64,000 nucleotides of DNA. It comes from Candidatus Omnitrophota bacterium. GTDB taxonomy: Bacteria > Omnitrophota > Gorgyraeia > B26-G9 > JBDRCZ01. The DNA lies in contig JBDRCZ010000056.1 in NCBI GenBank assembly GCA_043821285.1, forward strand, positions 792-64,791, written 5' to 3'. Position numbers and translations under genes: made by a program. Position 1 is the first letter of the stretch; every line of letters begins with the position of its first letter. The notes beneath the pieces were generated by a model. It was not told where the DNA came from, searched no databases, and saw only the letters and a list, made by a program, of their open reading frames with translations. Positions 1,111 through 42,665 of this stretch are shown here, in pieces.

Positions 1111-1189
1111 AAGCAACCACAGATTACGCAGATTGCTCAGATAGTTATAAAGATTTCAGGAAAAAATCTGAGTTAATCTGTGGTTGCTT
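1111..1189. repeat. Family A element: perfect 14-bp inverted repeat AAGCAACCACAGAT/ATCTGTGGTTGCTT enclosing tandem CAGAT 9-mers
   Basis: aaccacagattacgcagattgctcagat motif. Related copies at 3971-4006, 24649-24685, 36581-36620, 40063-40093(-) and 42633-42665. Confidence 0.65.
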
Positions 1190-1218
1190 TAAAAGTACAA
1201 GTAATTTTTGACAGAAGC
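1188..1218 (+). promoter_or_regulatory. Conserved upstream motif TTAAAAGTAC-N10-TTTTGACAGAAGCC (promoter-like)
   Basis: Near-identical motif at 4018-4049 and 40093-40124, each about 20-25 bp upstream of an RBS. Confidence 0.4.
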
Positions 1219-1241
1219 CTGTAATGAAAGAGGAGGATGTA

Positions 1242-2384
1242 ATGCAGAAAAATTATTTAATGACCCCCGGGCCGACACCTGTACCACCGGAAGTTTTAAC
1301 CGCAATGGCTCGTCCGATTATTCATCATCGTACGCCGCAATACGAAAAAATTTTTAAGGAAGTTAATGATAATTTGAAATATGTATTTAGAACGACAAAC
1401 GATATCTTGACGTTTGCCAGTTCCGGGACCGGCGCAATGGAGGCGGCGGTAGTAAATCTTCTAAGCCGCAGTGATAAAGTCTTGGTAATTAGCGGCGGGA
1501 AATTTGGCCAGCGCTGGGCGGAGATTTGTAATACTTATTCGTTAGATGTAAAAATTATTGATGTTCCCTGCGGTGATAGCGTGGACCCCGGTGAAGTGAA
1601 AGCATACCTTGATAAATGTCCAGATATAAAAGTTGTTTTTACCACTTATTGCGAAACATCAACCGGCGCAGTAACCGATATCCAGAGGATTTCCCAGATT
1701 CTCAAGAATACCCAGGCAATTATTGTTGTAGATGCGATAAGTGCGTTCGCCGGTATGGAGCTGTTAACAGACGAGTGGGGAATTGATGTTGTTGTAGTGG
1801 GTTCACAAAAGGGACTGATGATTCCCCCGGGGCTTAGTTTTTGTTCAGTGAGTAAAAAGGCATGGGAGCGGGTAAGTACTTCTAAACTGCCGAAATATTA
1901 CTTTGACTTTAAGCGGGCGAAAAAGGCCCTGGATAAAAATACAACCGCATATACCCCGGCAATAAGTTTAACGGTTGCATTGAATGAGGCCTTAAAAATC
2001 ATAAAAACAGAAGGATTAGAGAATGCATTGTTGCGCCATAAGATGTTAGCGCGTGCCTGCCGCCGGGCAATGAATACTTTAAATCTTCAGATTTTTGCAA
2101 AGAACCCGGCCGATGTCGTTACCTCAGTAAAGGTTCCAGAAGGCATTGATGGTGCAAAATTAGTAAAAACTATGCGGGAAAAATATGGTGTTTCTATTGC
2201 CGGGGGACAAGAAGAATTAAAAGGTAAAATTTTTCGAATTGCCCATATGGGGTATATGGATAAATTTGATTTGGTTGTTGCGGTATCATGTTTGGAAATT
2301 GTTTTATCTGAGCTGGGGTATAAAATAGAGTTTGGCCAGGGCGTGGGGGCGTTAGAGGAAGTTTTTAAGGAGGTTCAAAAGTGA
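1242..2384 (+). CDS. Class V (AGXT/SerC-like) aminotransferase, probably phosphoserine aminotransferase
   Basis: PLP class-V fold motifs. Translationally coupled to serA (GTGA overlap). RBS agaggagg lies before the ATG at 1242; the ORF is open from 1224. Confidence 0.8.
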   Translation: MQKNYLMTPGPTPVPPEVLTAMARPIIHHRTPQYEKIFKEVNDNLKYVFRTTNDILTFASSGTGAMEAAVVNLLSRSDKVLVISGGKFGQRWAEICNTYSLDVKIIDVPCGDSVDPGEVKAYLDKCPDIKVVFTTYCETSTGAVTDIQRISQILKNTQAIIVVDAISAFAGMELLTDEWGIDVVVVGSQKGLMIPPGLSFCSVSKKAWERVSTSKLPKYYFDFKRAKKALDKNTTAYTPAISLTVALNEALKIIKTEGLENALLRHKMLARACRRAMNTLNLQIFAKNPADVVTSVKVPEGIDGAKLVKTMREKYGVSIAGGQEELKGKIFRIAHMGYMDKFDLVVAVSCLEIVLSELGYKIEFGQGVGALEEVFKEVQK

Positions 2385-3961
2385 AAATTTTGGTAACGGA
2401 TCCTATTTCAGAAGAAGGTTTGAATATTTTAAAACAAGAAAAAGATGTGGATGTTGATATAAAATTAAATCCGCCGGCGGAGGAGTTAAAAAAGATTATC
2501 GCTGATTATGATGCTTGGATATTACGCAGCGGCACAAAGGTCACAAAAGATATTATTGACGCCGCGGTAAAACTTCGCGTTATCGGACGTGCCGGTGTCG
2601 GGCTGGATAATGTGGACTCTGAGGCGGCAACTAAACGCGGCATAATTGTGATGAATACCCCAGGTGGCAATACCATCTCTACTGCGGAGCATACCATGAG
2701 TATGATGCTTGCTCTCTCGCGTAATATTCCTCAAGCAGATGCTTCGTTAAGATCCGGCCGCTGGGAGCGGAAAAAATTTACCGGGGTGGAGCTTTTTGGC
2801 AAAACTTTGGGAATTATTGGACTTGGACGTATTGGCCGGGAAGTGGCCAAGCGGGCGCTTTCTTTTAATATGAGAGTCGTTGCTTATGACCCGTTTCTTT
2901 CAAAAGAGCGGACGAGTAAGCTTGAAATAGAATCGATTGATTTAGAAGAATTATTACAAATTTCTGATTATATAACGACTCATACACCACTTACCCAGGA
3001 TACAAAACATCTCATAAGCCAGACAGCGTTTAAAATGATGAAAAAAGGGGTAAAGATTGTAAATTGTGCCCGGGGGGGAATTGTTGATGAAAAAGCGCTT
3101 TATGAGGCAATAAAAGAGGGTATTGTCTCCGGGGCGGCATTAGACGTGTTTGAAAAGGAACCGCCAAATGATAACTGCTTACTTAAACTCGAAAATGTTA
3201 TTGTTACTCCGCATCTTGGTGCTTCAACCGAAGAAGCGCAGATAAATGTTTCTGTCGAGGTCTGCCGTCAGGTGGTTGATGCACTTGTGGGAAGATGTGT
3301 ACGGAATGCAGTTAATTTTCCCTGTCTTGAGCCGGAAGTATTCAAAGTAATCGGGCCATATTTAAATCTTGCGGAAAAATTGGGACTGCTTCAGGCACAG
3401 CTCCTTGCCGGCCGGATAACGCGTGTGGATATAAAATATTGCGGCGATATTATTAACCATGACCTTGCGGTATTGACAATTGCGATCATTAAAGGATTAC
3501 TTGCACCAATATTGCAGGAGACGGTTAATTTTGTGAATGCCCCGGTAATTGCCAAAGAACGCCGGATTGAAATTGTTGAATCAAAAACATCGGAAGTGGA
3601 AGATTTTGCAAATTTAATTTCTATTGATGTATCAACCGATCGCGGAAAAAATTCGGTCGTCGGAACGCTGTTTACAAGAAACGACCCGCGCATTGTTAAA
3701 ATTAATGAGTTCTATATTGATGCCGTACCCAGCGGGTATATGCTGGTTATTGCTAATATCGATAAACCAGGGATTGTTGGTAAGATCGGGACTTTTCTTG
3801 GTGATAACAATATTAATATTGCCGGGATGAATTTTGGCCGTCAAAGTCCAGGCGGTAAGGCGATAACCGTTCTGAATATTGACAGCCCCCTGACGGAAGA
3901 GATGCTGTCTCAGGTAAAATCTATGCCGCATATTCATGATGCGAAAATTGTTAAATTGTAA
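2381..3961 (+). CDS. serA: D-3-phosphoglycerate dehydrogenase with C-terminal ACT domain
   Basis: 2-hydroxyacid dehydrogenase NAD-binding motif GIIGLGRIGREVA and catalytic region. 526-aa long form. Confidence 0.9.
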   Translation: MKILVTDPISEEGLNILKQEKDVDVDIKLNPPAEELKKIIADYDAWILRSGTKVTKDIIDAAVKLRVIGRAGVGLDNVDSEAATKRGIIVMNTPGGNTISTAEHTMSMMLALSRNIPQADASLRSGRWERKKFTGVELFGKTLGIIGLGRIGREVAKRALSFNMRVVAYDPFLSKERTSKLEIESIDLEELLQISDYITTHTPLTQDTKHLISQTAFKMMKKGVKIVNCARGGIVDEKALYEAIKEGIVSGAALDVFEKEPPNDNCLLKLENVIVTPHLGASTEEAQINVSVEVCRQVVDALVGRCVRNAVNFPCLEPEVFKVIGPYLNLAEKLGLLQAQLLAGRITRVDIKYCGDIINHDLAVLTIAIIKGLLAPILQETVNFVNAPVIAKERRIEIVESKTSEVEDFANLISIDVSTDRGKNSVVGTLFTRNDPRIVKINEFYIDAVPSGYMLVIANIDKPGIVGKIGTFLGDNNINIAGMNFGRQSPGGKAITVLNIDSPLTEEMLSQVKSMPHIHDAKIVKL

Positions 3962-3970
3962 AACCTAAAT

Positions 3971-4006
3971 GCAACCACAGATTATACAGATTACGCAGAT
4001 GGTTGT
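3971..4006. repeat. Family A element (aaccacagattatacagattacgcagatggttg)
   Basis: CAACCA...TGGTTG inverted repeat around CAGAT units. Followed by the conserved TTAAAAG...TTTGACAGAACC motif at 4018-4049. Confidence 0.6.
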
Positions 4007-4017
4007 TTTGAAAACAA

Positions 4018-4049
4018 ATTTAAAAGTACCGGTGGTATTTGACAGAACC
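4018..4049 (+). promoter_or_regulatory. Conserved upstream motif TTTAAAAGTACC-N8-TTTGACAGAACC
   Basis: Same motif as 1188-1218 and 40093-40124. RBS gggaggaagg downstream. Confidence 0.4.
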
Positions 4050-4074
4050 TAAAATCAGGGAGGAAGGTTATACG

Positions 4075-5316
4075 ATGGCAAAAAAAAGAAATAAGATATA
4101 CATTGTGGATGTAACTAATCGTGACGGGGTGCAGACTTCCCGCATTTGCCTTTCTAAATTACAAAAGACAATGCTCAATATATTTTTAAATGAAATGGGC
4201 ATATTTCAGAGTGAATTTGGATTTCCCGTAACGAAACACGAAAAAAACTATTTGAATGCAAATTTGAAACTGGCGAAGATCGGGGTGATTAATAAAACAC
4301 GTCTCAGCGGCTGGATACGGGCAACAGTTGAGGATGTATTGGCTGCTTTTAAAAATGCGCCTGATCTCCAACATCTTAATTTATCAATATCTACGTCTGA
4401 TCAGATGATTATTCATAAATTTCGGGGTAAATTAGATCATTTATCGGTAATTACGGGAATGGAACATGCCGTGAAGCATGCGATTAAAATGGGGGCAAAG
4501 AGTGTTGGGGTAAATGCGGAAGATGCCTCGCGTACCGATATTAATTATTTAATAAAATTTGCCAAAGCTGCGGAGGCCGCCGGGGCAGAGAGAATTCGTT
4601 ATTGTGATACATTGGGCTATGAAACTCCTTTTAGCATTTATGAACGAATTAAACAGCTTGTAAATAATGTAAAAATTTCCGTAGAAATACATTGCCATAA
4701 TGATTTAGGAATGGCCGTAGCAAATTCTATTGCCGGGGCAAAGGCGGCTATTGATAACGGGGTGGATGCTTATATAAATACCTGTATAAATGGGGTAGGT
4801 GAGAGAGCCGGTAATGCAGATTTAGTCAGCGTGATTCTGGCATTAAAATATGCCGCTGGTTTTAATGATTATACGTTGGATGAAAGGGTAAATTTGAAGG
4901 TTGCCTGGAGGATTTCCAAGTATGCCTCATACGCCTTTGGCGTACCTATTCCGATAAACCAGCCAGGGGTAGGCGCAAATGCATTTGCTCATGAATCAGG
5001 TATCCACGCCGACGGTGCGCTTAAAGACCGCAGGAATTATGAATTATTTGATTATGAAGAATTAGGAAGGGGAGAGCAGGAAATAATTGAAACCGGCAGA
5101 AAAATAACGGCTGGTGAATATAGCGGGATTAAAGGATTTCGTAATGTTTATGAAAAATTACAGATTTCATTTAAAAATGACAAACAGGCCGCAAAGATTT
5201 TAGACTTAGTGCGTTATGCGAACGTTCATAACCAGAAACCGTTGGTTAAGACCGAATTAATGTTTATTGCCAAATATCCTGATATTGCTCAACAAATTTT
5301 TACGATGACGCCATAA
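4075..5316 (+). CDS. HMGL-like 2-isopropylmalate / homocitrate / citramalate synthase family protein (short form lacking the LeuA regulatory domain)
   Basis: DVTNRDGVQT and HxHNDLGMAVANS motifs, GERAGNA. RBS before the ATG at 4075 (ORF open from 4039). Confidence 0.75.
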   Translation: MAKKRNKIYIVDVTNRDGVQTSRICLSKLQKTMLNIFLNEMGIFQSEFGFPVTKHEKNYLNANLKLAKIGVINKTRLSGWIRATVEDVLAAFKNAPDLQHLNLSISTSDQMIIHKFRGKLDHLSVITGMEHAVKHAIKMGAKSVGVNAEDASRTDINYLIKFAKAAEAAGAERIRYCDTLGYETPFSIYERIKQLVNNVKISVEIHCHNDLGMAVANSIAGAKAAIDNGVDAYINTCINGVGERAGNADLVSVILALKYAAGFNDYTLDERVNLKVAWRISKYASYAFGVPIPINQPGVGANAFAHESGIHADGALKDRRNYELFDYEELGRGEQEIIETGRKITAGEYSGIKGFRNVYEKLQISFKNDKQAAKILDLVRYANVHNQKPLVKTELMFIAKYPDIAQQIFTMTP

Positions 5317-5448
5317 ACGGCAAAAAGTGTTAAAAAGTGACAATTGACGAAAACAGAATGACGTGCCAAACAACACGGCGGGCAGGTGAGAAAATAAAAA
5401 TTAACAATGATAGTCAAGGTGATGGAAATTTTTTAGGAGGGGGTTGAG

Positions 5449-7293
5449 ATGAGAAAGGTAATATATTTTCTTTTGACTTTAGGGTTTATTTTTACAAGCA
5501 GCGTTGTATATGGGCAGTCAACAATTATAAAAGAAGTTAAGTCGGATGATTTAGGCACATCTGTTCGGGTATCATTAGTTACAAACAGCTATACAACGGT
5601 AGAATATTATGATATTGCTACTCCTCCGCAGATTGTGATTGATTTTATTGGAAATGTTTTTACAAATTTGCGCGATGCACAAATAATAGATAATGAACCG
5701 ATAAAACAGATTCGTTTTGTCAAAGGAACGGAGACGGCCGGGGATTTGGATGATTCTTATTATGCCGTTGATTTTATAATTATTGACATGGAACAGCCAA
5801 AACCTTATGAATTTTTTCATGGTCAGAATGTTGTAAGCGTTGAAGTAAAAAAGGCAAAACCGCGCAGTAACATAGAAAGAGTTTCAAAATTGCCGGTGTC
5901 AGAAATAACTACACCTGAGATGAGAAAACCCGTAGAGCCAGAACTACTTTTGCCAGTTGAAGAAGAAGCTGTGGGGGGGGCGCCAGCCTTAAGGCAGGAA
6001 AAGACGGAAAACGAGATAACTCTGCCGCTACTGCCGGCAATCGAAGAGCCGGTAGAGGAGTTGCCCAGAGAAGGAATGATCAAAAAGAGCTGGAGTAGTG
6101 TAAGTAGCGGAACAAAATCTATCGGCAGAAATATATGGAGAGGAGCAGCTTCAATCGGCCGGGGAGTAAAAAAAATATTTGCTTTACCTAAAATGGGAAA
6201 AAAAGTTAAGAAAAGAGAGGTTAAACAGGAGAAGGAAGATGGTCATGGATATAAAAATTCTCAGGCCGGCTTAGCAGCAGCAATAGAGGAAAAAAATAAA
6301 GCAGAAGCGTTACTTAAAAAAGCAGTGGATGATTATATGCTTGCACAGGCAGAACTTGGAGAGGTAACAAAAACTCAACACCAGCCGGATGAAAAATTTG
6401 ACATGGTGGAAAAAGAAGCAATGGATGCACAACAGGAACTGGCGGCTGCGGTAGAAGAAGAAAAAAAAGTAAAAGAGGAAGTAGAAAATATCTCTGAGCA
6501 ATATAAGGCAGCAAAGAAAGAATTAAATCTGGCAATATCCAAACAGCTTGATGTGGAAGAATTAGAGAGATTAAAGACTAAGTACGAAAATAAAAAACAG
6601 GAATTCAATGCTGCGATAGCCCAGGCTAAATTAAGTAATAAAAAAGTAAAAGAAAAAACTAATCTGAATAAACAAAAACAGCAAGCATTAAAGTCACAAA
6701 CTAGAGATGACCAGTCTCGATCTGATGCTTTAAAAAAGGCCCGGACAAATTTGGAATTAGCCAAAGATAAAATGGAACGGATGATCGTTGAAGTAAAGAA
6801 ATCGGAAATAAAAGTATCAACAGCAAAAAGGGAATATGGGGCCTGGCAGTTAAGAAAAAGCAAAAAGTCTTTAGCAAATGAATATGTTGAAAAGCCTCAT
6901 TTACCGGAAAAACCAGAGATAACCTGTGAGTCAGCAAGAAATTTGCGCAATAAAGGGTTTGAGGCACAGAGCCGGGGAGATTTGGATCAAGCAGTCCGTT
7001 ACTATCAAGAGGCAATACTTGCGGATTCCACATATCCTGACCCGCATAATGATTTAGGCATTGTTTACGAACAGAAAGGATGGCGAGATCGAGCAAAAGG
7101 AGAATATTTAACCGTATTAAAGATTGCCCCGGATTACATAAAGGCTTATTCCAATTTAGCTCTTTTGTACGAACAGGAAGGCAATATTGAAAAAGCAATA
7201 TATTATTGGCAGGAACGGGTCAGGCTGGGAAATCCTGGAGACAAGTGGACAGAAGTTGCGAGAAAAAGAATGGAAGAGTTAAAAGAAAGGTAA
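5449..7293 (+). CDS. Secreted AMIN-domain / coiled-coil / TPR-repeat protein
   Basis: Signal peptide. AMIN-like N-domain, long K/E-rich coiled coil and C-terminal TPR repeats. Confidence 0.6.
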   Translation: MRKVIYFLLTLGFIFTSSVVYGQSTIIKEVKSDDLGTSVRVSLVTNSYTTVEYYDIATPPQIVIDFIGNVFTNLRDAQIIDNEPIKQIRFVKGTETAGDLDDSYYAVDFIIIDMEQPKPYEFFHGQNVVSVEVKKAKPRSNIERVSKLPVSEITTPEMRKPVEPELLLPVEEEAVGGAPALRQEKTENEITLPLLPAIEEPVEELPREGMIKKSWSSVSSGTKSIGRNIWRGAASIGRGVKKIFALPKMGKKVKKREVKQEKEDGHGYKNSQAGLAAAIEEKNKAEALLKKAVDDYMLAQAELGEVTKTQHQPDEKFDMVEKEAMDAQQELAAAVEEEKKVKEEVENISEQYKAAKKELNLAISKQLDVEELERLKTKYENKKQEFNAAIAQAKLSNKKVKEKTNLNKQKQQALKSQTRDDQSRSDALKKARTNLELAKDKMERMIVEVKKSEIKVSTAKREYGAWQLRKSKKSLANEYVEKPHLPEKPEITCESARNLRNKGFEAQSRGDLDQAVRYYQEAILADSTYPDPHNDLGIVYEQKGWRDRAKGEYLTVLKIAPDYIKAYSNLALLYEQEGNIEKAIYYWQERVRLGNPGDKWTEVARKRMEELKER

Positions 7294-8589
<1,296 letters not shown>

Positions 8590-8624
8590 AAAAAATTCCT
8601 ATACTTTGACGATCCCTTCTCCAC

Positions 8625-8745
8625 AATGCATTGGCGGATCTTCGATGCAGCAAGACGACAGGGTATTACGCTTAGGTGATGCGGCTGCAGCACCGGAAAT
8701 TTTTTTATATAATGAAAACCTGCGGTTTTCAACCTTTCCCTCCAT
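8625..8745 (-). repeat. Composite repeat (family B palindrome tgaaaacctgcggttttca at 8713-8732 plus family C CGAAGATCCGCC module), minus orientation
   Basis: The reverse complement is about 85 percent identical over roughly 120 bp to 57227-57345. Confidence 0.65.
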
Positions 8746-8799
8746 AATGTTACTTGCTGGTAAGACCACAGGAAGTAAACAGGTTCATGTTGAAAGACA

Positions 8800-9411: not shown

Positions 9412-9438
9412 AAGCAGAGAGGTTTTACCGCGATTAAA

Positions 9439-9745
9439 CTTGAGTATTCCCTGTAGCTTGCTACAGGGTGATCTTAGGGATAGTCAAGCTTAAGGAAATT
9501 TTTTAACGTATTAGGAAACAATAAGATTATCAAACTGTGGATAACTTGGGATTTAGGGTATAGTTTGGTATATTTAACTTGGAATTCCCCGCCCCTTGGG
9601 GCGTGGGATGATATAAGAAATTCCTTATCGACGTAGCGAAGCGGAGCTGATCGTGATACCCCGCTGCTTGCGGCGGGGAGAGTTCATTGTTAAGGGAAGG
9701 TTTGAAAACCGTAGGTTTTTAAATGGATAAAAAGATTCCGAAGGA
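9439..9745. repeat. Composite intergenic repeat cluster (hairpin CCCTGTAGCTTGCTACAGGG, GC hairpins, palindrome TTGAAAACCGTAGGTTTTT at 9702-9720)
   Basis: Shares modules with 330-432, 57100-57420 and 63620-63692. Confidence 0.6.
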
Positions 9746-9768
9746 ATTTTTTTATTAACTAAATATTC

Positions 9769-9797
9769 TTGACTTTTATTATCAAGAGTGCTATATT
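9769..9797 (+). promoter_or_regulatory. Sigma-70-like promoter (TTGACT-N17-TATATT)
   Basis: Canonical hexamers and spacing about 15 bp upstream of the 9811 start. Confidence 0.4.
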
Positions 9798-9810
9798 TCA
9801 CAGATAAGGG

Positions 9811-15052: not shown

Positions 15053-15402
15053 AGCCACGGATAAAACACGGATTTTTAATAAGTAAATTGCTTAAATTCT
15101 ACTGCTCGCCTTCCAAAATTTATTCCTTAGCCTCAGTGGGGATTTTTGTTATTGCTAACACCCACTAAAAATTTACATTAGAAATATTAAATAGTGGTAA
15201 CTTAATGGTTAAAAAAAATAAATGTTTCAAAAAGATATATGCAAGTTTCGGGATATCTCGATAACGAGTCTAAAACCTATATGGGTTTAGATAATAAATC
15301 CTTCGGGCAAATTTTGCATTAGACAAAATTTGGGTTTAATTGATGTTGTATTTACGCCTCATCTTTTTTTCTCCGTGTTCAATCCGTGAAAATCTGTGGC
15401 TT
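15053..15402. mobile_element. MITE-like element (about 350 bp) bounded by family-D inverted termini AGCCACGGATAAAACACGGAT ... ATCCGTGAAAATCTGTGGCT
   Basis: The termini are inverted repeats of each other and match the termini of the 42690-42770 and 60083-60178 elements. Confidence 0.45.
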
Positions 15403-17221: not shown

Positions 17222-17323
17222 ATGCAAAAATCAAATATCAAAAATCAAAATGGGAAATTTTCTTTTAGTCTCCATTTTTTTTAAAAAATGGAGAGGATAA
17301 ATTAATGCCGAAGGCAGTAATTT

Positions 17324-20043: not shown

Positions 20044-20145
20044 GGTTATGTACGCAAAGCCGCAAAGTAGTAAAGAACGAGAAATATAAAAGAATTTTGT
20101 ATTATGTAAATTCTGTCAAAAACATTGAAGGACAGATATTAAATT

Positions 20146-21591: not shown

Positions 21592-21792
21592 TTGATTGCT
21601 CTATCAAGATTATAGGATATTACAGCCGGGTAATCAGACTTTGCAGTATCGGAAATTTTTTTATCTGCTTGAAAACTGTCGTGTTCAAGCTTTCCCTTTT
21701 GAGATTAGAACATTTAATATTAGAAATTATTTAGGATTTAGTGCTTCGAATTTGGAATTTCAAGGCTTTGCTTGCAATCTCTGATTGCATAT

Positions 21793-21829
21793 TAAAAGGA
21801 TACGTAATTTTGACAAAACGTATTACTTT
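21793..21829 (+). promoter_or_regulatory. Variant of the conserved motif ATTAAAAGGATACGTAATTTTGACAAAACG upstream of ispG
   Basis: Same TTAAAAG-N10-TTTTGACA-AAC architecture as 1188-1218. Confidence 0.35.
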
Positions 21830-22923: not shown

Positions 22924-24652
22924 AACGTTAATGCCGACATTAAAAGAGAATCCGAGTGATGCCGAAACAATAAGCCATAAGCTGATGCTTAGAGCAGGGC
23001 TTATCCGGAAGCTTTCCAGCGGGGTGTATTCATATCTGCCGCTGGGATTAAAAGTGCTTAAAAAAGTTGAAAAAATCGTGCGGGAAGAAATGGATAAAGC
23101 CGGGGCATTAGAGGTGCTTTTGCCGGCTTTGCAGCCGGTGGAGCTGTGGCAGCAGACCGGCAGATTTGAAACTTTAGGACAGGATTTGATATCGTTTGTT
23201 GACCGCCATGGCAAAAGAATAGTGCTTGGGCCAACCCATGAAGAAGTAATAACCGCTTTGGTAAAAAACGAGGTGAGTTCCTACAAACAGTTGCCGCTTA
23301 TAATTTACCAGATTCAGACAAAATTCCGGGACGAGGTACGGCCAAGATTTGGAGTTATCCGCTGCCGGGAGTTTATGATGAAAGATGCCTATAGTTTTGA
23401 CACTGATGTTCAGGGATTAGATATAAGTTATAAAAAAATGTATGCCGCCTATTGTGCGATCTTAAAAAGATGCGGATTATCATATATTGCGGTTCAGGCT
23501 GATCCGGGGATTATGGGTGGTGATGAATCAAGCGAGTTTATGGCTGCGGCCGAACACGGAGAAGATATAGTCGTGCATTGTACAAATTGCGGCTATGCGG
23601 CAAGCATTGCTAAAGCAGAATGCCGGGATCCAGTTGCGGTTACATATAAGCCTTATGAATTACTGCCCATGGGAGAAATTGAAACGCCGGGAATTACTTC
23701 CGTAGCTGATGTAAGCACCTTTTTAAAAGTCGAGCTGGATAAATTAATGAAAACAATGCTTTATATTACTAAAGATGAAGAAATAGTTGCGGTGCTTGTT
23801 CGAGGTAATTATGATGTAAATGAAGCAAAATTATGCCGTATTTTAAAAACAAATAATCTCAAAATGGCCGACCGCCAGACAATAGAAAAAATAACTAACG
23901 GAGAAATGGGATTTAGCGGACCGGTCGGACTTAAAAATGTTAAGATTATTGCCGATTTTTCAGTCAAAGACGGCAATAATTTTATTACCGGCGCAAATAA
24001 GAAAGACCAGCATTTGACTAATGTAAATCCATGGCGTGATTTTGATGTTCATGTCTGGGCGGATGTACGTTGTTTTACCGCGCAGGATTTATGTCCAGGT
24101 TGTCAAAGTCAGGTAACCGTCCAGCGGGCAATAGAAGTAGGACATGTATTTAAGCTGGGCACAAAATATACCAGAAGTCTTAATGCCTTTTATCTTGACG
24201 AACAGGGCCGGCAAAACCTGATAATTATGGGATGTTACGGGATTGGCGTAAGCAGAATAATTGCCGCGGTCGTAGAGCAAAATAATGATTGTGAAGGGAT
24301 TATTTGGCCGGAAGAGATTGCCCCGTATCAGGTGGTGATTTTACCGTTGAATATTGACAATAAAGCTTTAAACGATACCGCAATTAAAATTTATAACCAA
24401 CTACTTAAGCTGGGGATTGATGTTTTGATTGATGACCGAAATGAACGTGCCGGGGTTAAATTTAAGGACGCAGATTTATCCGGTATTCCGCTGCAAGTTA
24501 TTATCGGAGAAAATTCACTGGCAAAGAAAAATGTTGAAGTAAAGATAAGAAAAATAAAAGAAAAAATTGTTGTGAAACAGGATTTAGTAATTGAAGAGAT
24601 TTGTAAAATCTTAAAACCACATGACAATTCAAAATTAAAAAACAAAAAGTAA
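22910..24652 (+). CDS. proS: Proline--tRNA ligase
   Basis: Class II aaRS motifs across the full length. Overlaps the ispG end by 14 nt. Confidence 0.9.
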   Translation: MHLSKTLMPTLKENPSDAETISHKLMLRAGLIRKLSSGVYSYLPLGLKVLKKVEKIVREEMDKAGALEVLLPALQPVELWQQTGRFETLGQDLISFVDRHGKRIVLGPTHEEVITALVKNEVSSYKQLPLIIYQIQTKFRDEVRPRFGVIRCREFMMKDAYSFDTDVQGLDISYKKMYAAYCAILKRCGLSYIAVQADPGIMGGDESSEFMAAAEHGEDIVVHCTNCGYAASIAKAECRDPVAVTYKPYELLPMGEIETPGITSVADVSTFLKVELDKLMKTMLYITKDEEIVAVLVRGNYDVNEAKLCRILKTNNLKMADRQTIEKITNGEMGFSGPVGLKNVKIIADFSVKDGNNFITGANKKDQHLTNVNPWRDFDVHVWADVRCFTAQDLCPGCQSQVTVQRAIEVGHVFKLGTKYTRSLNAFYLDEQGRQNLIIMGCYGIGVSRIIAAVVEQNNDCEGIIWPEEIAPYQVVILPLNIDNKALNDTAIKIYNQLLKLGIDVLIDDRNERAGVKFKDADLSGIPLQVIIGENSLAKKNVEVKIRKIKEKIVVKQDLVIEEICKILKPHDNSKLKNKK

Positions 24653-24685
24653 CCACAGATTGCTCAGATTGCACAGATAGTTATT
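24649..24685. repeat. Family A element (aaccacagattgctcagattgcacagatag) starting at the proS stop codon
   Basis: CAGAT 9-mer units. Confidence 0.6.
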
Positions 24686-27884: not shown

Positions 27885-27974
27885 TAAAAATAATAAAAAT
27901 AATAAATTTTCCGCAAAGCCGCCAAGCAGGCAAAGAAATATATGGTATGAATAACCAAAAAGGAGAATAAAACT

Positions 27975-33726: not shown

Positions 33727-33811
33727 CCAAGGTCAGCGATAAGAATGAGTAATGAAATAACAAGGGGTCGATTCGATAATAGTAATGAAGAGAAAGTCTG
33801 TAGACCTTAAA

Positions 33812-33936
33812 TCCAAATGACAAATCCCAAATGACAAATGGAAAAACTTAAATGTTTTTCTTTTTAAAGATTGAAATATTTAAAGATTCATTTGCCTGTC
33901 TGTCGCAGGCAGGGATTTTGTCATTTGGAATTTGAC
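33812..33936. promoter_or_regulatory. Inverted-repeat / palindromic operator-like region (TCCAAATGACAAATCCC ... GGGATTTTGTCATTTGGA; TGTCA-N9-TGACA) upstream of the hypC-hydE fusion
   Basis: Visible in the sequence, 90-210 bp upstream of 34026. Confidence 0.35.
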
Positions 33937-34025
33937 ATTGCCGGTATATTGCCTTATCAGGCAGTATGCATGTTAATTATAATGAGTTATTAGATGTTGA
34001 TTATATGTTATGGAGCATGAATGCC

Positions 34026-35327: not shown

Positions 35328-35337
35328 GGTTAATTTT

Positions 35338-36575: not shown

Positions 36576-36580
36576 AGAAA

Positions 36581-36620
36581 ACACGCAGATTATTTAGATA
36601 GTTGTTTTGAAAATAAATAA
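36581..36620. repeat. Degenerate family A element (aaaacacgcagattatttagatagttgttttgaaaataaat)
   Basis: Shares the CAGAT units and the gttgttttgaaaa tail with 3991-4010. Confidence 0.5.
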
Positions 36621-36632
36621 GTTATTAATACA

Positions 36633-36821
36633 CGTATTGCGTATTGAGTATCGAGTATTGAGCATAAAAACTAAAAGGATGACAACAAGAAAATTGCCTC
36701 CGGTGATAACCTTCTGCGATTTTCAGCGGTTAGGAAAGTGTTTTACTTATGCCCGCAAGGGTATAAGGGTATACTTTCCTATACCATAAAAACGCAATAC
36801 TCACGACACAATACACAATAC
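36633..36821. mobile_element. MITE-like element bounded by imperfect inverted termini (GTATTGCGTATTGAGTATCGAGTATTGAGC ... GCAATACTCACGACACAATACACAATAC)
   Basis: The termini are reverse complements of each other. A solo terminus copy (GGGTATTGCGTATTGAG) lies at 45445-45464. Confidence 0.4.
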
Positions 36822-36836
36822 AAAAACTATGATAAT

Positions 36837-37319: not shown

Positions 37320-38682
37320 AGTGATTGATCAGGAACAGATTGGGGATATATTAAAAGAGACAAAAAATCCATCTTTTTCTGAAACCTATGCGGTTATTAC
37401 AAAAGCCGAAGAAAAAAAAGGTCTGAGCCAAAAAGATACCGCGGTTTTATTAAATTGTCAGGATGAAAAAATAATCAAAAATATATTTGATCTGGCAAAA
37501 AAGATAAAGAATGACATATATGGGGAAAGACTGGTGTTATTTGCGCCTTTGTATGTCAGCAATGCCTGCAACAATAACTGCCTTTATTGCGGTTTTCGCC
37601 AGGATAATAAAAATTTTAAAAGAACGACTTTAAACTTTGAGGAAATAGAGCAAGAGGTTAGAATGCTTGAGTCGAGAGGGCATAAGCGCGTTCTTTTAGT
37701 TTCCGGAGAAGCCGTAGGTTTTGATTATTTGCAGAAGGCAATAAAAACAGTTTACCAGACGAAAAACGGGACTGGCGAAATAAGACGGGTTAACGTTAAT
37801 TGCGCCCCCCTTACGGCTGATGAGTTTAAAGAATTAAAAAAATGCGGTATTGGAACTTATCAGCTTTTTCAGGAGACATACCACCGGCCGACTTATACGA
37901 AAATGCATCCTTCCGGACCAAAGGCCGATTATAATAATAGAATTTCTGCGATTGACCGGGCAATTGCCGCGGGGATTGATGATGTGGGAATTGGTGTCTT
38001 ATTTGGTTTATATGATTATCGGTTCGAGATTCTGGGGTTACTTTCGCACATTGCTCATTTAGAAAAAAATTTTGGCATTGGCCCGCATACAATTTCCGTA
38101 CCGCGTCTTGAGCCGGCAGCAGGTTCGGTTGTTTCCGTAAAGCCGCCGTATCCGGTAAGCGACCAGGAACTAAAAAAGATTGTTGCGATTTTGCGTTTAG
38201 CGGTTCCTTATACCGGTATTATTTTATCAACCAGAGAGAATAAAGAGTTAAGGAATGAACTTTTTTCTTTTGGCGTTTCTCAAATCAGTGCGGGTTCTTC
38301 TACCCAGCCGGGCGGATACTCCAAAGAAAAAGGCCTGGAACAATTTTCTTTATCGGATAAGCGTTCAATGTCAGAGGTTATTATTGACGTTTTAAAATTG
38401 GGCTATCTGCCAAGTTTTTGTACAGCCTGTTACCGTCTTGGCCGCACCGGTGAAGATTTTATGGCATTTGCGAAAAAAGGTGAAATACATAAATTTTGCC
38501 TGCCGAATTGTCTGCTTACATTCAGTGAGTATCTTACGGATTACGCAACTAAAGAGGAAAAGATATTAGGAGATAAGGTTATTCGTGAACAGATGGAGTT
38601 TATTCCGCTAACTTCTCTACGCAGAAAAATAGAACACAAATTAGATCTGGTACAATCCGGCAAACGCGACTTATATTTTTAA
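37312..38682 (+). CDS. hydG: [FeFe]-hydrogenase maturase HydG (radical SAM tyrosine lyase)
   Basis: N-terminal radical SAM CNNNCLYCGF. C-terminal CTAC-x22-C (C-x2-C-x22-C) auxiliary-cluster motif that distinguishes HydG from ThiH. Confidence 0.85.
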   Translation: MAKVIDQEQIGDILKETKNPSFSETYAVITKAEEKKGLSQKDTAVLLNCQDEKIIKNIFDLAKKIKNDIYGERLVLFAPLYVSNACNNNCLYCGFRQDNKNFKRTTLNFEEIEQEVRMLESRGHKRVLLVSGEAVGFDYLQKAIKTVYQTKNGTGEIRRVNVNCAPLTADEFKELKKCGIGTYQLFQETYHRPTYTKMHPSGPKADYNNRISAIDRAIAAGIDDVGIGVLFGLYDYRFEILGLLSHIAHLEKNFGIGPHTISVPRLEPAAGSVVSVKPPYPVSDQELKKIVAILRLAVPYTGIILSTRENKELRNELFSFGVSQISAGSSTQPGGYSKEKGLEQFSLSDKRSMSEVIIDVLKLGYLPSFCTACYRLGRTGEDFMAFAKKGEIHKFCLPNCLLTFSEYLTDYATKEEKILGDKVIREQMEFIPLTSLRRKIEHKLDLVQSGKRDLYF

Positions 38683-38862
38683 ATAAAAAGATGTGCCATG
38701 AAGGCGCATCTTTTTATCCGAGAAATTCCGCAACATAACGGAATTTCTTAACGTATGAAAATGCCCCTCTGTTTGCGGAGAAGGAGATTCAGCTGTGTAT
38801 GAGTTTACTTTTCTTTTCTAAAGAAAAGGTAAGTGCTAAATTAGTGCCGAAGGCAATAATTT

Positions 38863-39138
38863 ATGTTAGTTACTGTTAAACTATCTGCACCACTTCAGAA
38901 ATTTACAAAAGGCCGGGCGGAGGTCCGGGCATCCGGGAAAAGTATCCGGGAATTGATAAATAATCTTGAAGAAAAAATCCCGGGGATAAAAGAGAAAATA
39001 TGCGATGAGACGGACCGGCTGCATAAGTTCATCAATATTTATGTTAATGAACAAGACATTAGATTCTTAGAACATGCAGAAACAGTGCTGAAAGATGGGG
39101 ATGAGGTATTAATCATTCCGGCGATTGCCGGCGGATGA
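38863..39138 (+). CDS. MoaD/ThiS-family sulfur carrier protein (C-terminal GG)
   Basis: 91 aa, beta-grasp pattern, ends in GG. Confidence 0.7.
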   Translation: MLVTVKLSAPLQKFTKGRAEVRASGKSIRELINNLEEKIPGIKEKICDETDRLHKFINIYVNEQDIRFLEHAETVLKDGDEVLIIPAIAGG

Positions 39139-39154
39139 TGAAATAAAGGGCTAA

Positions 39155-39214
39155 GATGTAAGTAGTAAGGTGTAAGAAAAACTTATCGCGTACAACTTAC
39201 AACTTACTACTTAC
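39155..39214. other. Long imperfect inverted repeat hairpin between the moaD-like and moeB-like genes
   Basis: GATGTAAGTAGTAAGGTGTAAG ... CTTACAACTTACTACTTAC. Confidence 0.4.
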
Positions 39215-39237
39215 GGCTGAAAAGAGGGTGGTTTTTA

Positions 39238-40053
39238 GTGGGATTAGATCAGGCGCAAATCGAGCGGTATTCAAGGCAGATTATCTTGCCAAATGTTGGC
39301 CGGCGGGGACAGGAAAAAATATTTAAATCAAAAGTGCTGATTATTGGTGCCGGAGGTCTGGGTTCACCTTCTGCCTTGTACCTTGCCTCAGCCGGCGTGG
39401 GGAGTCTGGGTATTGTTGACTCAGACGAGGTAGAGCTTAATAACCTGCATAGACAAGTTTTACATTCCACAAAAACTATCGGCATCGCAAAAGTAAAATC
39501 TGCTAAGCATAGACTTATGTCACTAAATCCTGATGTAAAAACTGTTACTTACAATACCAGAGTTACCGCAGATAATATTTCTAATCTGATTAAGGGTTAT
39601 GATATAATCGTAGATGCATCTGATAATTTCCCCACGCGATATTTAGCAAATGATGTTTGTGTTCTCTCAAAGAAACCATTTTCGCACGGCAGTGTATGCG
39701 AATTTGGCGGGCAGGTAATGACAATTGTCCCGGGGAAAAGTGCCTGTTACCGGTGTTTATTCCCTGAACCCCCGCCACCCGGACGCATGCCCAATAGTCA
39801 GGAAACAGGTATACTTGGTGTGGTTCCGGGTATAATTGGTACAATTCAGGCAAATGAAGTATTAAAATATATTTTAGGTATCGGCAATCTTCTAATTGGC
39901 AGACTGCTGGTGTTTGATGCGCTTAATTCTTCTTTTCGAGAGGTGAAAGTCAAAAGAGATAAAAATTGCATGGTGTGTAGTGAAAAATATCATGATAAGA
40001 AAAAAAAGATAATGCCACGGATTTACACGGATTGGACACGGATAAAAAAATAG
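39238..40053 (+). CDS. moeB: MoeB/ThiF-family E1-like adenylyltransferase
   Basis: GTG start. Rossmann motif IIGAGGLGS and CxxC pair (CYRC). The 3' end of the ORF reads through a family-D repeat (codons MPRIYTDWTRIKK). Confidence 0.8.
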   Translation: MGLDQAQIERYSRQIILPNVGRRGQEKIFKSKVLIIGAGGLGSPSALYLASAGVGSLGIVDSDEVELNNLHRQVLHSTKTIGIAKVKSAKHRLMSLNPDVKTVTYNTRVTADNISNLIKGYDIIVDASDNFPTRYLANDVCVLSKKPFSHGSVCEFGGQVMTIVPGKSACYRCLFPEPPPPGRMPNSQETGILGVVPGIIGTIQANEVLKYILGIGNLLIGRLLVFDALNSSFREVKVKRDKNCMVCSEKYHDKKKKIMPRIYTDWTRIKK

Positions 40054-40093
40054 TATGTAAAAATCTGTGGTTGCTTGTAATCTATGGTTGCTT
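40012..40093. repeat. Family D half-element (gccacggatttacacggattggacacggat) joined to a minus-orientation family A element (atctgtggttgc...atctatggttgc)
   Basis: Direct match to the repeat units at 42690-42710 and 1176-1189. Confidence 0.55.
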
Positions 40094-40124
40094 ATTAAAA
40101 GTGTAGATAGTTTTTGACAGAACC
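40093..40124 (+). promoter_or_regulatory. Conserved upstream motif ATTAAAAGTGTAGATAGTTTTTGACAGAACC
   Basis: Third copy of the motif. RBS aaggagga follows. Confidence 0.4.
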
Positions 40125-40148
40125 ATATAGATAAGGAGGAGGCAAGAA

Positions 40149-40625
40149 ATGAAGGTGTATCGTTGTCGTATTTGTGGGGAGGTTTATATTGGGGAAGAAA
40201 AACCAAAAAGCTGCCCGTTTTGCGGGGAGCATGAGGCTTATTTTGTTTTAGCAAAGGAGTGGGCGTTATTACATAGTCGCGAGCTGTCAGATATCAGCCG
40301 GAACAATTTAAGAAAGGCATTGGATCTGGAAATAAATAATACGAATTTTTATAAGGCCGCCTCGGGAAAAAGTAAAGATGTCTATTTTTCCAGTATGTTT
40401 AAGGGACTGTCAAAGGTGGAGCGGGAACACGCCTCGACTATTTGCAAGTATTTAAACATTCAAAAACCAGACTCAAACATCAGCTCGGATAAGACAGTTG
40501 ATTTAGGCGCAGATAATGTCAAAGAAGCGAACCGGCGGGAAAGGAGCGCGGTTAAATTCTATGGCGAAGCAATGCAGCAGGCTCCGGAAAAAGAAATAAA
40601 AGATTTCTTCAATATTGGGATATAG
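40149..40625 (+). pseudogene. Rubredoxin-domain plus ferritin-like (reverse-rubrerythrin-like) gene, apparently truncated at the 3' end
   Basis: N-terminal CRIC...CPFC rubredoxin knuckles. Only one ExxH diiron half-site (VEREH) before the stop. The ORF runs straight into the 5'-truncated DUF1016 reading frame. Confidence 0.5.
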
Positions 40626-41517
40626 GTAAACAGATTGTAGAGAAGCAGAGAAAGCTCGGTTGGGGAAAAGCCGTGGTTGAGAATCTGGCAGTTGATTTAC
40701 AAAAAGAATTTCCAGGTATACAGGGGTTTTCCGCGCAAAACCTCTGGCGTATGAAACAATTTTATCAGACTTATAAAAATAATGAAAAACTCTCACCAAT
40801 GGTGAGAGAAATAGGCTGGACGCATAATATGGTAATTATGATGAAGTGTAAAAATGATAACACGCGACAGTTTTATATCGGCATGACTAAAAAGTTCGGT
40901 TGGACTAAAAATATTCTTATTCATCAGATCGAAAATCAATCTTACGAGAAAACGTTTCTTAACCAAACTAATTTTGAAAAGACTGTTCCTATTAAAATAC
41001 GTAATCAGGCGAAACTAGCTGTTAAGGATGAATACACCTTTGATTTTCTTGAATTGGGCGATGAACATCTTGAAAACGAGCTTGAGCGGGCGCTCACGGC
41101 GAATGTGCGGAGATTTTTGCTGAGATGGGCGGCTATTTTTGTTTTGTTGGCAATCAGCATAGAATAGAAATAGACGGTAGAGAATATTTTGTAGATATTC
41201 TCTTGTATCATCGAAAATTACGGTGTCTGGTGGCAGTTGAGCTCAAGATTGGTGATTTTAAGCCTGAGTATGCAGGCAAAATACAATTTTATCTTTCCGC
41301 GCTTAATGATAGGAGTACGTTGAAAGAAGAAAATCCGGCTATTGGGATTATTATTTGTAAAAGCAAAAGCCGGACAGTAGTTGAATACGCCCTGAAAGAT
41401 GTTAATAAACCGATAGGTGTTTCAACCTATACGATCAAAAAATCTTTACCTAAGACGTTAAAGAAATATTTACCTTCATCAAAGGAATTGGCGGCAAGCG
41501 TAACGGTGGTGAAATGA
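40580..41517 (+). pseudogene. DUF1016/YhcG PD-(D/E)XK nuclease family gene, 5'-truncated and with a frameshift near 41140
   Basis: Frame 2 reads YWDIGKQIVEKQRKLGWGKA...FLL. A 1-nt shift is then needed to continue EMGGYFCFVGNQHRIEIDG...IGVSTY (the YhcG-like core). Confidence 0.6.
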
Positions 41518-41622
41518 AATTAAAAATTGGCCCCAACTTACAGTTCCAGATTGACGCGGTAAACACAGTGACTGATGTATTTGACGGGCAGCCTTTATCA
41601 GAAAGTGATCTGGAAAGTTGAC
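41514..41622 (+). pseudogene. N-terminal stub of a restriction-enzyme Res/helicase-type gene
   Basis: MKLKIGPNLQFQIDAVNTVTDVFDGQP resembles the start of type III Res / DEAD-like helicases and then stops. Confidence 0.3.
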
Positions 41623-41712
41623 TTTAAGACTGTGGTTGAAGAAAGTGAGATATAAGTAGTTAGTTTTTGACAAAACGAAGTATAAAGGAATAAGCTTAAT
41701 ATCTACTTAACA

Positions 41713-41850
41713 AATCGAAGATCCGCCGGTATTGTGGTGGACTGGTGCCCGCCACAAAGTCGAAGATCCGCCAGTATTTTGGTGGAATTGGCGGACAGGG
41801 ATTAAATTCCCTGCCAAAAAACATGGCGGGTCATTTAAGGAAATAGGCAT
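41713..41850. repeat. Family C element (two direct copies of TCGAAGATCCGCCNGTATTNTGGTGG, then TTGGCGGACAGGGATTAAATTCCCTGCC...ATGGCGGGTCATTTAAGG)
   Basis: Matches 53745-53840. Partial matches at 57295-57400 and 8625-8665(-). Confidence 0.6.
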
Positions 41851-41986
41851 AATGTCTCACCTCGCAGACCGTGAGGAAATTCTTCAACAAGAATTCCCTC
41901 TACGCTCGGTGGGATAAATTCGCACATATCACTTAGCTTCACTACGTTTACTAAGTGATATGTGCTCATTTAAGGAGGGGAGAAAA

Positions 41987-42562
41987 ATGGCAAGTGTAAA
42001 AGGGACAGAGACGGAAAAAAATCTTTTAGCTTCGTTTGCCGGAGAGTCGCAGGCCAGGAACCGGTATACATATTTTGCCGGTGCGGCAAAAAAAGAAGGG
42101 TATGAACAGATTGCCGCGATATTTATCGAAACCGCGGATAATGAAAAGGAACACGCGAAGAGGTTTTTTAAACTTTTAGAAGGCGGCGAGGTGGAGATTA
42201 CCGCCAGTTACCCCGCCGGCGTTATTGGTAATACTGCGGCTAATTTAGCAGAGGCAGCAGCCGGCGAACATCTCGAGTGGACAAAGCTTTACAAAGAGGC
42301 AGAAGCAACTGCGCGAAAAGAGGGTTTTGAAGAGGTCGCGGTTCAGTTTAAAGAAATTGCGGAAGTGGAAGAGGAGCATGAAAAGCGGTACCGGAAACTG
42401 TTAAAAAATGTAAAAGAGGGAAAGGTATTCAAAAAAGATACCGTGGTGAAATGGAAATGCCGCAATTGCGGTTATGTTCATGAGGGTAAAGTAGCACCAG
42501 AAGAGTGCCCGGCTTGTAAACATCCACAAGCTTATTATGAGGTATTGGCAGAGAATTATTGA
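41987..42562 (+). CDS. rbr: Rubrerythrin
   Basis: Ferritin-like diiron domain followed by a C-terminal rubredoxin-like CRNC...CPAC. Confidence 0.85.
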   Translation: MASVKGTETEKNLLASFAGESQARNRYTYFAGAAKKEGYEQIAAIFIETADNEKEHAKRFFKLLEGGEVEITASYPAGVIGNTAANLAEAAAGEHLEWTKLYKEAEATARKEGFEEVAVQFKEIAEVEEEHEKRYRKLLKNVKEGKVFKKDTVVKWKCRNCGYVHEGKVAPEECPACKHPQAYYEVLAENY

Positions 42563-42632
42563 ATATAGCAAGGGAGATTATAGATATTGATTAATTTTGG
42601 ATAGTGTCAAGGCGTTATTACAAAATTAAAAG

Positions 42633-42665
42633 TAACCACAGATTGCACAGATTACGCAGATAGAA
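42633..42665. repeat. Family A element (aaccacagattgcacagattacgcagatag)
   Basis: CAGAT units. Preceded by TTAAAAGT. Confidence 0.6.

Follow-up and report, generated by a model that had tools for sequence, protein, structure and literature searches.

The 23S rRNA intervening sequences of Leptospira and Coxiella carry a small open reading frame (ORF) of the four-helix-bundle family TIGR02436, and the short tandemly repeated repetitive (STRR) sequences and small dispersed repeats of cyanobacteria reportedly consist of short intergenic tandem units, often in inverted sets that form hairpins; STRR sequences are not known to be linked to a flanked protein gene. The closest counterpart of the repeats reported here is the system of repetitive extragenic palindromic (REP) sequences, their hairpin doublets (REPINs) and the REP-associated tyrosine transposases (RAYTs) (Bertels and Rainey 2011, PMC3116915; PMC3337134). 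The repeats, called family A, were noted as six intergenic copies by a first-pass annotation of a 64-kb stretch (the window) of a metagenome-assembled genome (MAG) of a Candidatus Omnitrophota bacterium, with 38% G+C and every gene on the plus strand. Our reading, to which we give a probability of about 0.6, is that family A represents the two ends of a small element with inverted terminal arms and a GxxExxY (PF13366) gene, and that its copies in the window are selfish leftovers comparable to those of REPINs and RAYTs.

Association of the arm with GxxExxY genes across phyla

The repeat is real and lies far above chance in the window, where CAGATTNNNCAGAT occurs 8 times (0.05 expected) and AACCACAGATT, with at most 1 mismatch, 10 times (1.1 expected). 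Its full form, the arm AACCACAGATTnnnCAGATTnnnCAGAT, has three units of 9 nt and is present four times (1113-1142, 3971-4000, 24651-24678 and 42634-42661), each time matching all 22 specified bases exactly. The exact 28-nt pattern was scanned in one genome per species, a 596-Gb collection of 185,579 species, and was found at no fewer than 120 loci in about 15 phyla, compared to about 0.07 chance occurrences by our own estimate from the 22 specified bases. The carriers are Planctomycetota (anammox genera, Phycisphaerae and Pirellulales), Chloroflexota, Bacteroidota, Verrucomicrobiota, Lentisphaerota, Methylomirabilota, Acidobacteriota, Bacillota (Desulfosporosinus), Alpha- and Gammaproteobacteria, Spirochaetota, WOR-3, Sumerlaeota, Patescibacteria and others, and include the isolate Asticcacaulis sp. 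W401b and megabase-scale long-read contigs. Phages were rejected as the vehicle: the arm was found in only 6 viral contigs, none of them with the GxxExxY gene, and tblastn gave no match in 50,697 phage records.

In about 0.9 Mb of loci picked by the motif, with genes called by our own ORF heuristic as in all fetched loci, only four GxxExxY ORFs were present (three intact, one frameshifted), all within 60 nt of an arm. Two lie between arms (L037, 481 bp; L023, 510 bp, the frameshifted one) and two beside an arm (L091 and L064). The encoded proteins of 121-130 amino acids match TIGR04256, "GxxExxY protein" (E 1e-37 to 1e-42), and Pfam PF13366 (PDDEXK_3). No cargo other than GxxExxY was found between tandem-unit arms in these loci, which were selected through family A and therefore have little bearing on other repeat families. 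The association was also tested in reverse, by scanning metagenomes with an alignment of three GxxExxY proteins. Among the matches listed, 80 loci with 47-82% amino acid identity were obtained, and the flanks of 72 of the 80 genes held at least three oriented unit cores; truncated flanks account for four of the eight failures. The cores were CAGATT in 54 of the flanked genes and CGAATT, CGGATT, CTAATT or CAGATG in the remainder. Three cores were never reached among the controls, which comprised 21 other genes of these loci and 54 genes of the window (0/75 together). The best inverted repeat between the 220-nt flanks was mostly an arm of 20-40 nt such as ATCCGCAGATTACGCAGATTTCGCAGATT. Arm and gene are thus associated across phyla in both directions and against controls.

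From 141 arms beside GxxExxY genes the consensus A[T/A]CC[A/G]CAGATT[A/T]C[G/A]CAGATT[A/T]C[A/G]CAGATT was derived, with a unit period of 9 in 232 cases and 10 in 48, and usually three units. At constant positions the two arms of a pair are 92% identical, compared to about 50-58% identity between the proteins, which suggests that the arm sequence as such is under constraint. The type of arm follows protein similarity only weakly, being the same in 54 of 72 nearest neighbours (0.58 expected). Distant members with 33-49% identity come from other assemblies and from plasmids or secondary replicons of cultured organisms; they repeat this architecture with different units, for example CACGAAT in L214 and CGCGGAT in Gemmatirosa. 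In Bacteroides finegoldii (L218), CACAGAGGA arms flank a GxxExxY gene between radA and the next gene. In Sphingomonas parapaucimobilis (L219; NZ_CP155749.1, 482834-483299), CGCGAAG arms enclose a GxxExxY gene between fabD and fabG, the element starting 33 nt past the fabD stop codon and finishing 2 nt ahead of the fabG start codon. Neither the arm sequence nor a link between GxxExxY genes and flanking repeats was found in the open-access full-text literature, and the pairing of CAGATT-type arms with this gene seems to be unreported.

A very different origin would be simple sequence prone to slippage, which would have emerged separately in every lineage and have neither ancestry nor function in common. 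Unit number does vary between orthologous loci (3 vs 5 at L039 and L082), and terminal units and whole hairpins have been tandemly duplicated, as at 40062-40091 in the window and at L166; yet a 22-base pattern expected about 0.07 times has been found at so many loci, and the arm is tied to one protein family, leaving this explanation close to refuted. At L166 (1237-1941) a gene-carrying element and two gene-less hairpins of 91 bp stand in tandem with a 113-nt period, with an identical 12-nt left flank and near-identical right flanks, so the entire unit is tandemly duplicated there.

PF13366/TIGR04256 is a large family, with 15,406 clusters at 50% identity (E <= 0.001). A 2012 survey of the PD-(D/E)XK superfamily listed PF13366 as of unknown function, with multiple transfers between divisions (PMC3424549). 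Variation is absent or almost absent at the E of GxxExxY, at the D and at the ExK residues. Searches by sequence gave no solved structure of a relative; an AlphaFold2 model (predicted local distance difference test score, pLDDT, 90; predicted template modelling score, pTM, 0.83) suggests a minimal PD-(D/E)XK fold, with weak best Foldseek matches to lambda exonuclease, Cas4 SSO0001, Bax1 and Hjc resolvase. Assignment to a defence system was rejected, with no PADLOC match and only a weak PHROGs endonuclease match.

The full element is about 420-520 bp long and has one gene. In compact elements the arms overlap the ORF ends, the left arm being read as ATG AAT CCG CAG ATT... (MNPQI...) and the right arm encoding the protein tail, e.g. 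NLRESAKSAD, before the stop codon; in the others 20-190 nt separate arm and ORF. Relative to GxxExxY, the two neighbouring genes both have the same orientation in 15 cases and both the opposite one in 2. In 16 of 25 the gap between the upstream stop codon and the element is 0-20 nt, and the next start codon often follows 17-27 nt beyond the element; in Ca. Jettenia CY-1 the element stands between czcB-like and czcA-like genes. Full elements thus occupy operon junctions in sense orientation, right after the upstream stop codon.

Among the arms as a whole, 144 of 159 are intergenic in DNA that is 79% coding. Their intergenic regions are divergent in 12, convergent in 24 and tandem in 72 cases, against a background of 105, 108 and 427, so divergent regions are under-used. 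In co-directional regions the element is nearer to the upstream stop codon than to the next start codon in 36 of 56 (medians 55 vs 96 nt, p = 0.044). About half of the arms have an inverted partner; this yields 62 unique hairpins, in which the loop measures 5-399 nt and the AACC ends point outward throughout, and no more than three pairs are "inside-out". Hairpins are also nested in the loops of other tandem-unit hairpins.

Gene-less arms in the window

Loss of the gene by internal deletion with retention of the arms was seen between orthologous loci. The intact element of L037 and the orthologous Brocadia locus L022 have closely aligning flanks, and L022 is without about 400 bp including the ORF; what is left there is the whole left arm, some 30 nt of the 5' leader and two right-arm units. 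One Desulfosporosinus locus measures 211, 183 or 146 nt in different genomes, the 211-nt version carrying a remnant of the GxxExxY C-terminus (E = 2e-7); the number of units there is five in one genome and three in another. Gene remnants were found in 3 of 31 long loops. Solo arms can be read as the further-decayed end of this deletion series.

The family A features of the window are the following:

1113-1142, plus strand: copy 1, left arm of three units, GCAACCACAGATTACGCAGATTGCTCAGAT
1166-1187, minus strand: copy 1, right arm of two units, reverse complement GCAACCACAGATTAACTCAGAT, pairing with the left arm
3971-4005, plus strand: copy 2, solo arm of three units with TGGTTG directly after it
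24651-24678, plus strand: copy 3, solo arm of three units
36582-36599, plus strand: copy 4, degenerate two-unit remnant CACGCAGATTATTTAGAT, 6 nt past the stop codon of the MobA-like gene
40062-40091, minus strand: copy 5, period-17 tandem duplication of the outermost unit and its flank only, AATCTGTGGTTGCTT / AATCTATGGTTGCTT, in right-arm orientation
42634-42661, plus strand: copy 6, solo arm of three units, 71 nt past the rubrerythrin stop codon

The six had been described under one consensus, which is exact at 1115-1144, 24651-24680 and 42634-42663. The other three deviate: copy 2 (3973-4000) has ATA in the first spacer and GATGG at its end, copy 4 is the two-unit remnant only, and copy 5, which does lie on the other strand as claimed, holds just the outermost unit, twice. 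The first copy closes as an inverted repeat, as had been noted; the entire hairpin spans about 1110-1190 and has a perfect outer stem of 17 bp, with a minimum free energy of the RNA of -33.7 kcal/mol (z = -6.7). Strong folding is confined to this copy, the five others folding no better than shuffles (z -0.8 to +1.4). An inverted partner arm was absent from the intergenic regions of copies 3, 4 and 6; copy 5 is a lone right-arm end, and the TGGTTG after copy 2 is read as a 6-nt leftover from the outer end of a lost right arm. Of the six, copy 1 is a short hairpin without a gene, four are solo arms or remnants and the last is a duplicated terminal unit.

The genes upstream of copies 1-6 were rightly named, and Pfam assigns them to ClpP, SerA, ProS, a MobA-like protein, ThiF/MoeB and rubrerythrin. 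The distances from stop codon to copy are 21, 9, -2, 6, 8 and 71 nt; at copy 3 the first two bases of the arm are the final two of the ProS stop codon TAA, and the next start codon follows 29 nt downstream. All six copies are closer to the upstream stop codon than to the following start codon. The post-stop placement on which the first-pass annotation had remarked is shared with the gene-carrying full elements, so proximity to a stop codon is a property of the whole element class.

Two other Omnitrophota lineages (64% amino acid identity) keep the gene order clpP-agxt-serA, and the aminotransferase of the window is itself only about 64% identical in protein sequence to its next relatives. In these lineages the clpP|agxt junction is 19-26 nt long, and after serA there are 31 nt in one and overlapping genes in the other; about 26 kb of the two relatives contained no CAGAT units. 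In the window, copies 1 and 2 fill the corresponding junctions, which are 150 and 114 nt long, indicating that these copies are lineage-specific additions and not conserved regulatory parts of these operons. As the window is without a GxxExxY gene and the relatives have junctions of 19-31 nt at these sites, the window copies are best read as orphan arms, gene-less derivatives like the one at L022.

Role of the arm sequence

Variable positions agree between the two arms of a hairpin in 65% of cases (55% expected) and are mismatched in 35%; the sequence of each arm is better preserved than the complementarity between the two. On the coding strand the mismatches comprise 60 G·U and 51 A·C, so that G·U is not in excess (p = 0.45). 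Solo arms across phyla run with the neighbouring gene in 33 cases and against it in 34. An intrinsic terminator, a G+C-rich stem with a T run, was called at none of the family A copies. Rfam gave no match at the gathering score in the window and only chance miRNA-like hairpin matches on full elements. Because of this arm conservation pattern, the G·U result, the strand balance and the lack of a terminator or an Rfam family, the evidence favours a role of the units in double-stranded DNA over a strand-specific role in RNA.

The first-pass annotation had offered three functions for the repeat. Its terminator or insulator does not fit copies of which none has a G+C-rich stem followed by a T run and five of six are unstructured; its small-RNA family is at odds with the absence of an Rfam match, of a strand preference of solo arms and of a G·U excess. 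A protein-binding array of direct repeats stays the best mechanistic reading, with the amendment that the arrays are the inverted-repeat arms that flank GxxExxY genes. Four RNA-level candidates were rejected in all: a small RNA or known RNA family (no Rfam match), an intrinsic terminator (no stem and T run at any copy), a Rho-loading or other sense-strand RNA element (solo arms unbiased across phyla) and an RNA hairpin under pairing selection (no G·U asymmetry).

A more elaborate RNA-level cassette was also considered. There, the read-through operon transcript would fold the arms into a long stem with the nuclease ORF in the loop, the stem would control the ORF by RNase III processing, start-codon occlusion or protection from 3' exonucleases, and gene-less hairpins would persist as mRNA stabilisers or weak terminators of the upstream gene. 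Full elements are promoter-poor, co-oriented with the operon and placed right after stop codons, and in compact elements the arms hold the start and stop codons, so that a stem would bury the start; an RNA stem of this kind may form in the full element. The strong fold of copy 1 and the agreement between arms above chance point the same way, yet the 35% of mismatched variable positions, the balanced G·U count, the lack of T-run terminators and the five unstructured window copies do not, and solo arms, which equal hairpins in frequency, are not biased to either strand. We consider the cassette unlikely.

The arms could instead belong to the host, as sites of a conserved DNA-binding protein of nucleoid, replication or regulator type, with GxxExxY genes merely landing in or next to them. 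Conservation of the units across phyla, the frequency of gene-less solo arms and the hairpins nested in the loops of others, which suggest that sites may attract insertions, would be expected from such arrays; the units, however, differ by GxxExxY subgroup (CAGATT, CGAATT, CGGATT, CTAATT, CACAGAGG, CGCGAAG) and track protein similarity, which an element-encoded partner fits better, and the relatives of the window organism are without sites at the same junctions. By eye, the units match none of the consensus sequences of DnaA boxes, parS and IHF sites, and the CGCAG variants break the DnaA core. Host ownership appears improbable, more so than the RNA cassette.

The full element ends on either side in an arm of three tandem 9-nt units, A[A/T]CC[A/G]CAGATT-wCrCAGATT-wCrCAGATT, with the A[A/T]CC ends outward, and encodes a single GxxExxY protein of about 120-130 amino acids with a predicted minimal PD-(D/E)XK nuclease fold. 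In the mechanism we prefer, the arms would be arrays of recognition sites in double-stranded DNA, three at each end, for the nuclease that the element encodes, and might serve spread or upkeep of the element as REP sequences serve RAYT transposases. Gene-less arms would be non-autonomous or decaying members of the element population, and the post-stop position would reflect tolerated, transcribed insertion sites and not service to host genes. More broadly and more tentatively, GxxExxY/PF13366 genes with tandem-nonamer inverted arms could form an undescribed cross-phylum class of minimal selfish elements, made up of a single small PD-(D/E)XK nuclease and two arms of three sites, that insert at operon junctions without target duplication and leave large populations of gene-less hairpins and solo arms.

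Several points weigh against the reading of family A as the ends of a mobile GxxExxY element. Mobility of the element is something we infer, as is, purely, arm binding by its nuclease; PD-(D/E)XK proteins this small could equally be structure-specific or RNA nucleases. A six-frame search with a profile hidden Markov model found no GxxExxY ORF or remnant in the window (best E = 0.18). The loci were chosen through the exact motif or as relatives of motif-flanked genes, among the matches listed. No target-site duplication was found in 123 of 136 elements, the rest having 2-3 nt matches at chance level, and the 136 share no target consensus. Several full elements stand at the same site in different genera (L127, L128, L207 and L023; several anammox genera), a sign that turnover can be slow. 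The solo state of about half of the arms does not follow from the proposed mechanism, and the loops of gene-less hairpins mostly differ within one genome, unlike copies of a MITE (miniature inverted-repeat transposable element) master; in Promineofilum they mostly differ, although two share CAACTCTTG. In Prevotella nigrescens (L220; NZ_CP082843.1, 415174-415900), ACAAATCG/ACAAATAG arrays flank the gene in direct orientation and are not inverted. Finally, the same-strand arrays of Ca. Anammoxibacter are not explained by simple hairpin decay.

These Anammoxibacter arrays (L032 6700-7200, L036 3850-5250, L016, L021 and L111) are long runs of solo arms with mixed unit types, CACAGATT, CACGGATT and CACTAAT, each followed by a AAAAGCAAAAGC-like spacer.

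Sister arms, other repeats and known systems

A detector for three similar 7-mers spaced 7-11 nt found 26 regions in the window (3-6 in shuffles), 18 of them intergenic. They include sister families with CACGGATT, CACGAAT, CACAGAG and further units, of which the following were delimited:

15054-15400, no strand assigned: inverted pair of CACGGAT units, arms 15054-15073 and 15371-15400, with CACAGATT as the outermost unit on the right
40014-40043, plus strand: arm of three CACGGATT units, period 10-11
42691-42769, no strand assigned: hairpin of CACGGAT units, arms 42691-42709 and 42740-42769
42787-42855, no strand assigned: hairpin of mixed CACGAAT/CACAGATT units, arms 42787-42814 and 42828-42855
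42915-42930, plus strand: solo arm of CACAGAG(G) units, a second one lying at 60287-60311
60084-60177, no strand assigned: hairpin of mixed CACGGAT/CACAGAT units, arms 60084-60113 and 60148-60177

Since distant GxxExxY members show the same architecture with other unit sequences, these sister families very likely belong to the same superfamily as family A. At other loci CGGATT-type arms flank GxxExxY genes, and CACGAAT arms flank PF13366 genes in L214, L212, L155 and L157. The loop of about 300 nt in the 15054-15400 pair held no detectable GxxExxY remnant. The CACGGATT arm (40014-40053) falls within the final 13 codons of the ThiF/MoeB gene, whose Pfam domain stops at residue 245 of 271; an inserted arm may therefore encode the C-terminal tail of this protein, as happens where arms overlap the ORF ends in compact GxxExxY elements.

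More tandem-unit arrays are present at 33809-33940, 36634-36662, 39152-39215, 43082-43117, 17225-17251, 20053-20067 and 27912-27926, with units CAAATGA, GTATTGA, TAAGATG/TACAACT (as a hairpin), TTCTACATG, AAATCAA and CGCAAAG. An arm of related CGCAAAG/CGCAGAG units adjoins a PF13366 gene in L216; the other array units were linked to no gene.

A motif TTAAAAG-N(10-16)-TTTGACA(G/A)AAC occurs at 1189-1216, 4020-4047, 21792-21818 and 40095-40122, and also at 41666-41677 and 43327-43338, standing 20-40 nt ahead of Shine-Dalgarno sequences and start codons. In the window TTTGACAGAACC (at most 2 mismatches) was counted 18 times (5.1 expected). TTAAAAG..TTTGACAGAAC had been noted after three family A copies and does follow copies 1, 2 and 5 (1189, 4020 and 40095), but it is a separate feature, occurring also without a family A copy (21792, 41666 and 43327). 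As three of its six intergenic occurrences are not beside such a copy, it is probably a promoter or 5'-leader signal of the host and not part of the element.

Other repeats and genes were observed in the window. The palindrome family TTGAAAACCGTAGGTTTTCAAA is found at 393-414, 8711-8732, 9702-9723, 53844-53865, 57235-57256 and 63652-63673, often with GGGAAAG before and GGATAAAAAATTTCCGG after it, and with short CCCGTAGCTTGCTACGGG-like hairpins alongside. A dispersed repeat CGAAGATCCGCC ... GGCGGACAGGGATTAAA occupies 41716-41806, 53760-53776, 57325-57369 and 8633-8644. The overlapping ORFs 40673-41167 and 41125-41517, the second with a match to the YhcG PDDEXK nuclease domain that begins at profile position 39 (PF06250, E = 2e-45), are probably one frameshifted gene of a PD-(D/E)XK family distinct from PF13366, with no established link to the arms. 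Two small ORFs at 55640-56050 (MKVRDIIKLIKSDGWY... and MYRFLIVIEKADNNYSAYSPDLPGC...) resemble HicA/HicB toxin-antitoxin genes by eye. The region 62690-63140 is non-coding, and its segment GAAGCCGTACTGTGGAAAAACCCGACGTACGGAA recalls domain V of group II introns; a CACAGAG-type hairpin follows at about 63130-63200. A group II intron is unsupported there, with no Rfam intron match even at E <= 1.

Tying PF13366/TIGR04256 to a highly conserved DNA motif gives the family a testable candidate substrate. It would also explain a class of intergenic repeats that clutters many MAGs and can break assemblies and mislead the prediction of small RNAs and terminators: if the proposed element class holds, much of the repeat content of Omnitrophota, anammox, Chloroflexi and Bacteroidales genomes that takes the form of three short units, often in hairpins, would be element debris or non-autonomous progeny. 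Essential operons, e.g. fabD-fabG in Sphingomonas, carry the embedded nuclease-like gene, and the arrangement is present in the cultured hosts Sphingomonas parapaucimobilis, Bacteroides finegoldii, Prevotella nigrescens, Treponema saccharophilum and Asticcacaulis sp. W401b.

Compared to known systems, family A shares its post-stop position and, in copy 1, a stable hairpin with intrinsic terminators and 3' stabiliser hairpins, but it has no T run, its stems are A+T-rich and repetitive, and most copies are single arms that do not fold. With the 23S rRNA intervening sequences the full element has in common a small ORF in the loop of a long inverted repeat, which in that case is transcribed within the host RNA; the ORF here is PF13366 and the sites are operon junctions, and an rRNA intervening sequence was rejected, with no conserved rRNA motifs in the 206 loci examined. 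Cyanobacterial STRR sequences are likewise said to be intergenic tandem short units, often in inverted hairpin-forming sets, and STRR-like heptamer arrays lie beside family A arms (CCAATGA in L030, CAAATGA at 33809-33840 in the window); STRR sequences have 7-nt units in longer arrays, whereas the units here are 9-10 nt long and usually exactly three. MITEs resemble the elements in their terminal inverted repeats, non-coding short forms, origin by internal deletion and intergenic location. They differ in having target-site duplications and a DDE transposase partner, and here the internal sequence is mostly not conserved among copies and the arms are conserved across phyla; a DDE-type MITE was rejected for want of a target-site duplication.

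The nearest likeness is to REPINs and RAYTs. The partner of family A differs, being a protein of about 120 amino acids of PF13366/TIGR04256 with a predicted PD-(D/E)XK fold and not an HUH/Y1 transposase, and so does the repeat, three tandem 9-nt units in place of the single imperfect palindrome with a GTAG head of a REP sequence. The same arm is shared by about 15 phyla, whereas REP sequences are lineage-specific, and GxxExxY genes are often multi-copy and inside operons. Common to both systems are short intergenic repeats that occur as singlets and as inverted hairpin doublets, an associated gene that is itself flanked by inverted repeats, a location mostly outside promoters and near gene ends without target-site duplications, and gene-less copies that, as seen among the family A loci, far outnumber the gene-carrying ones.

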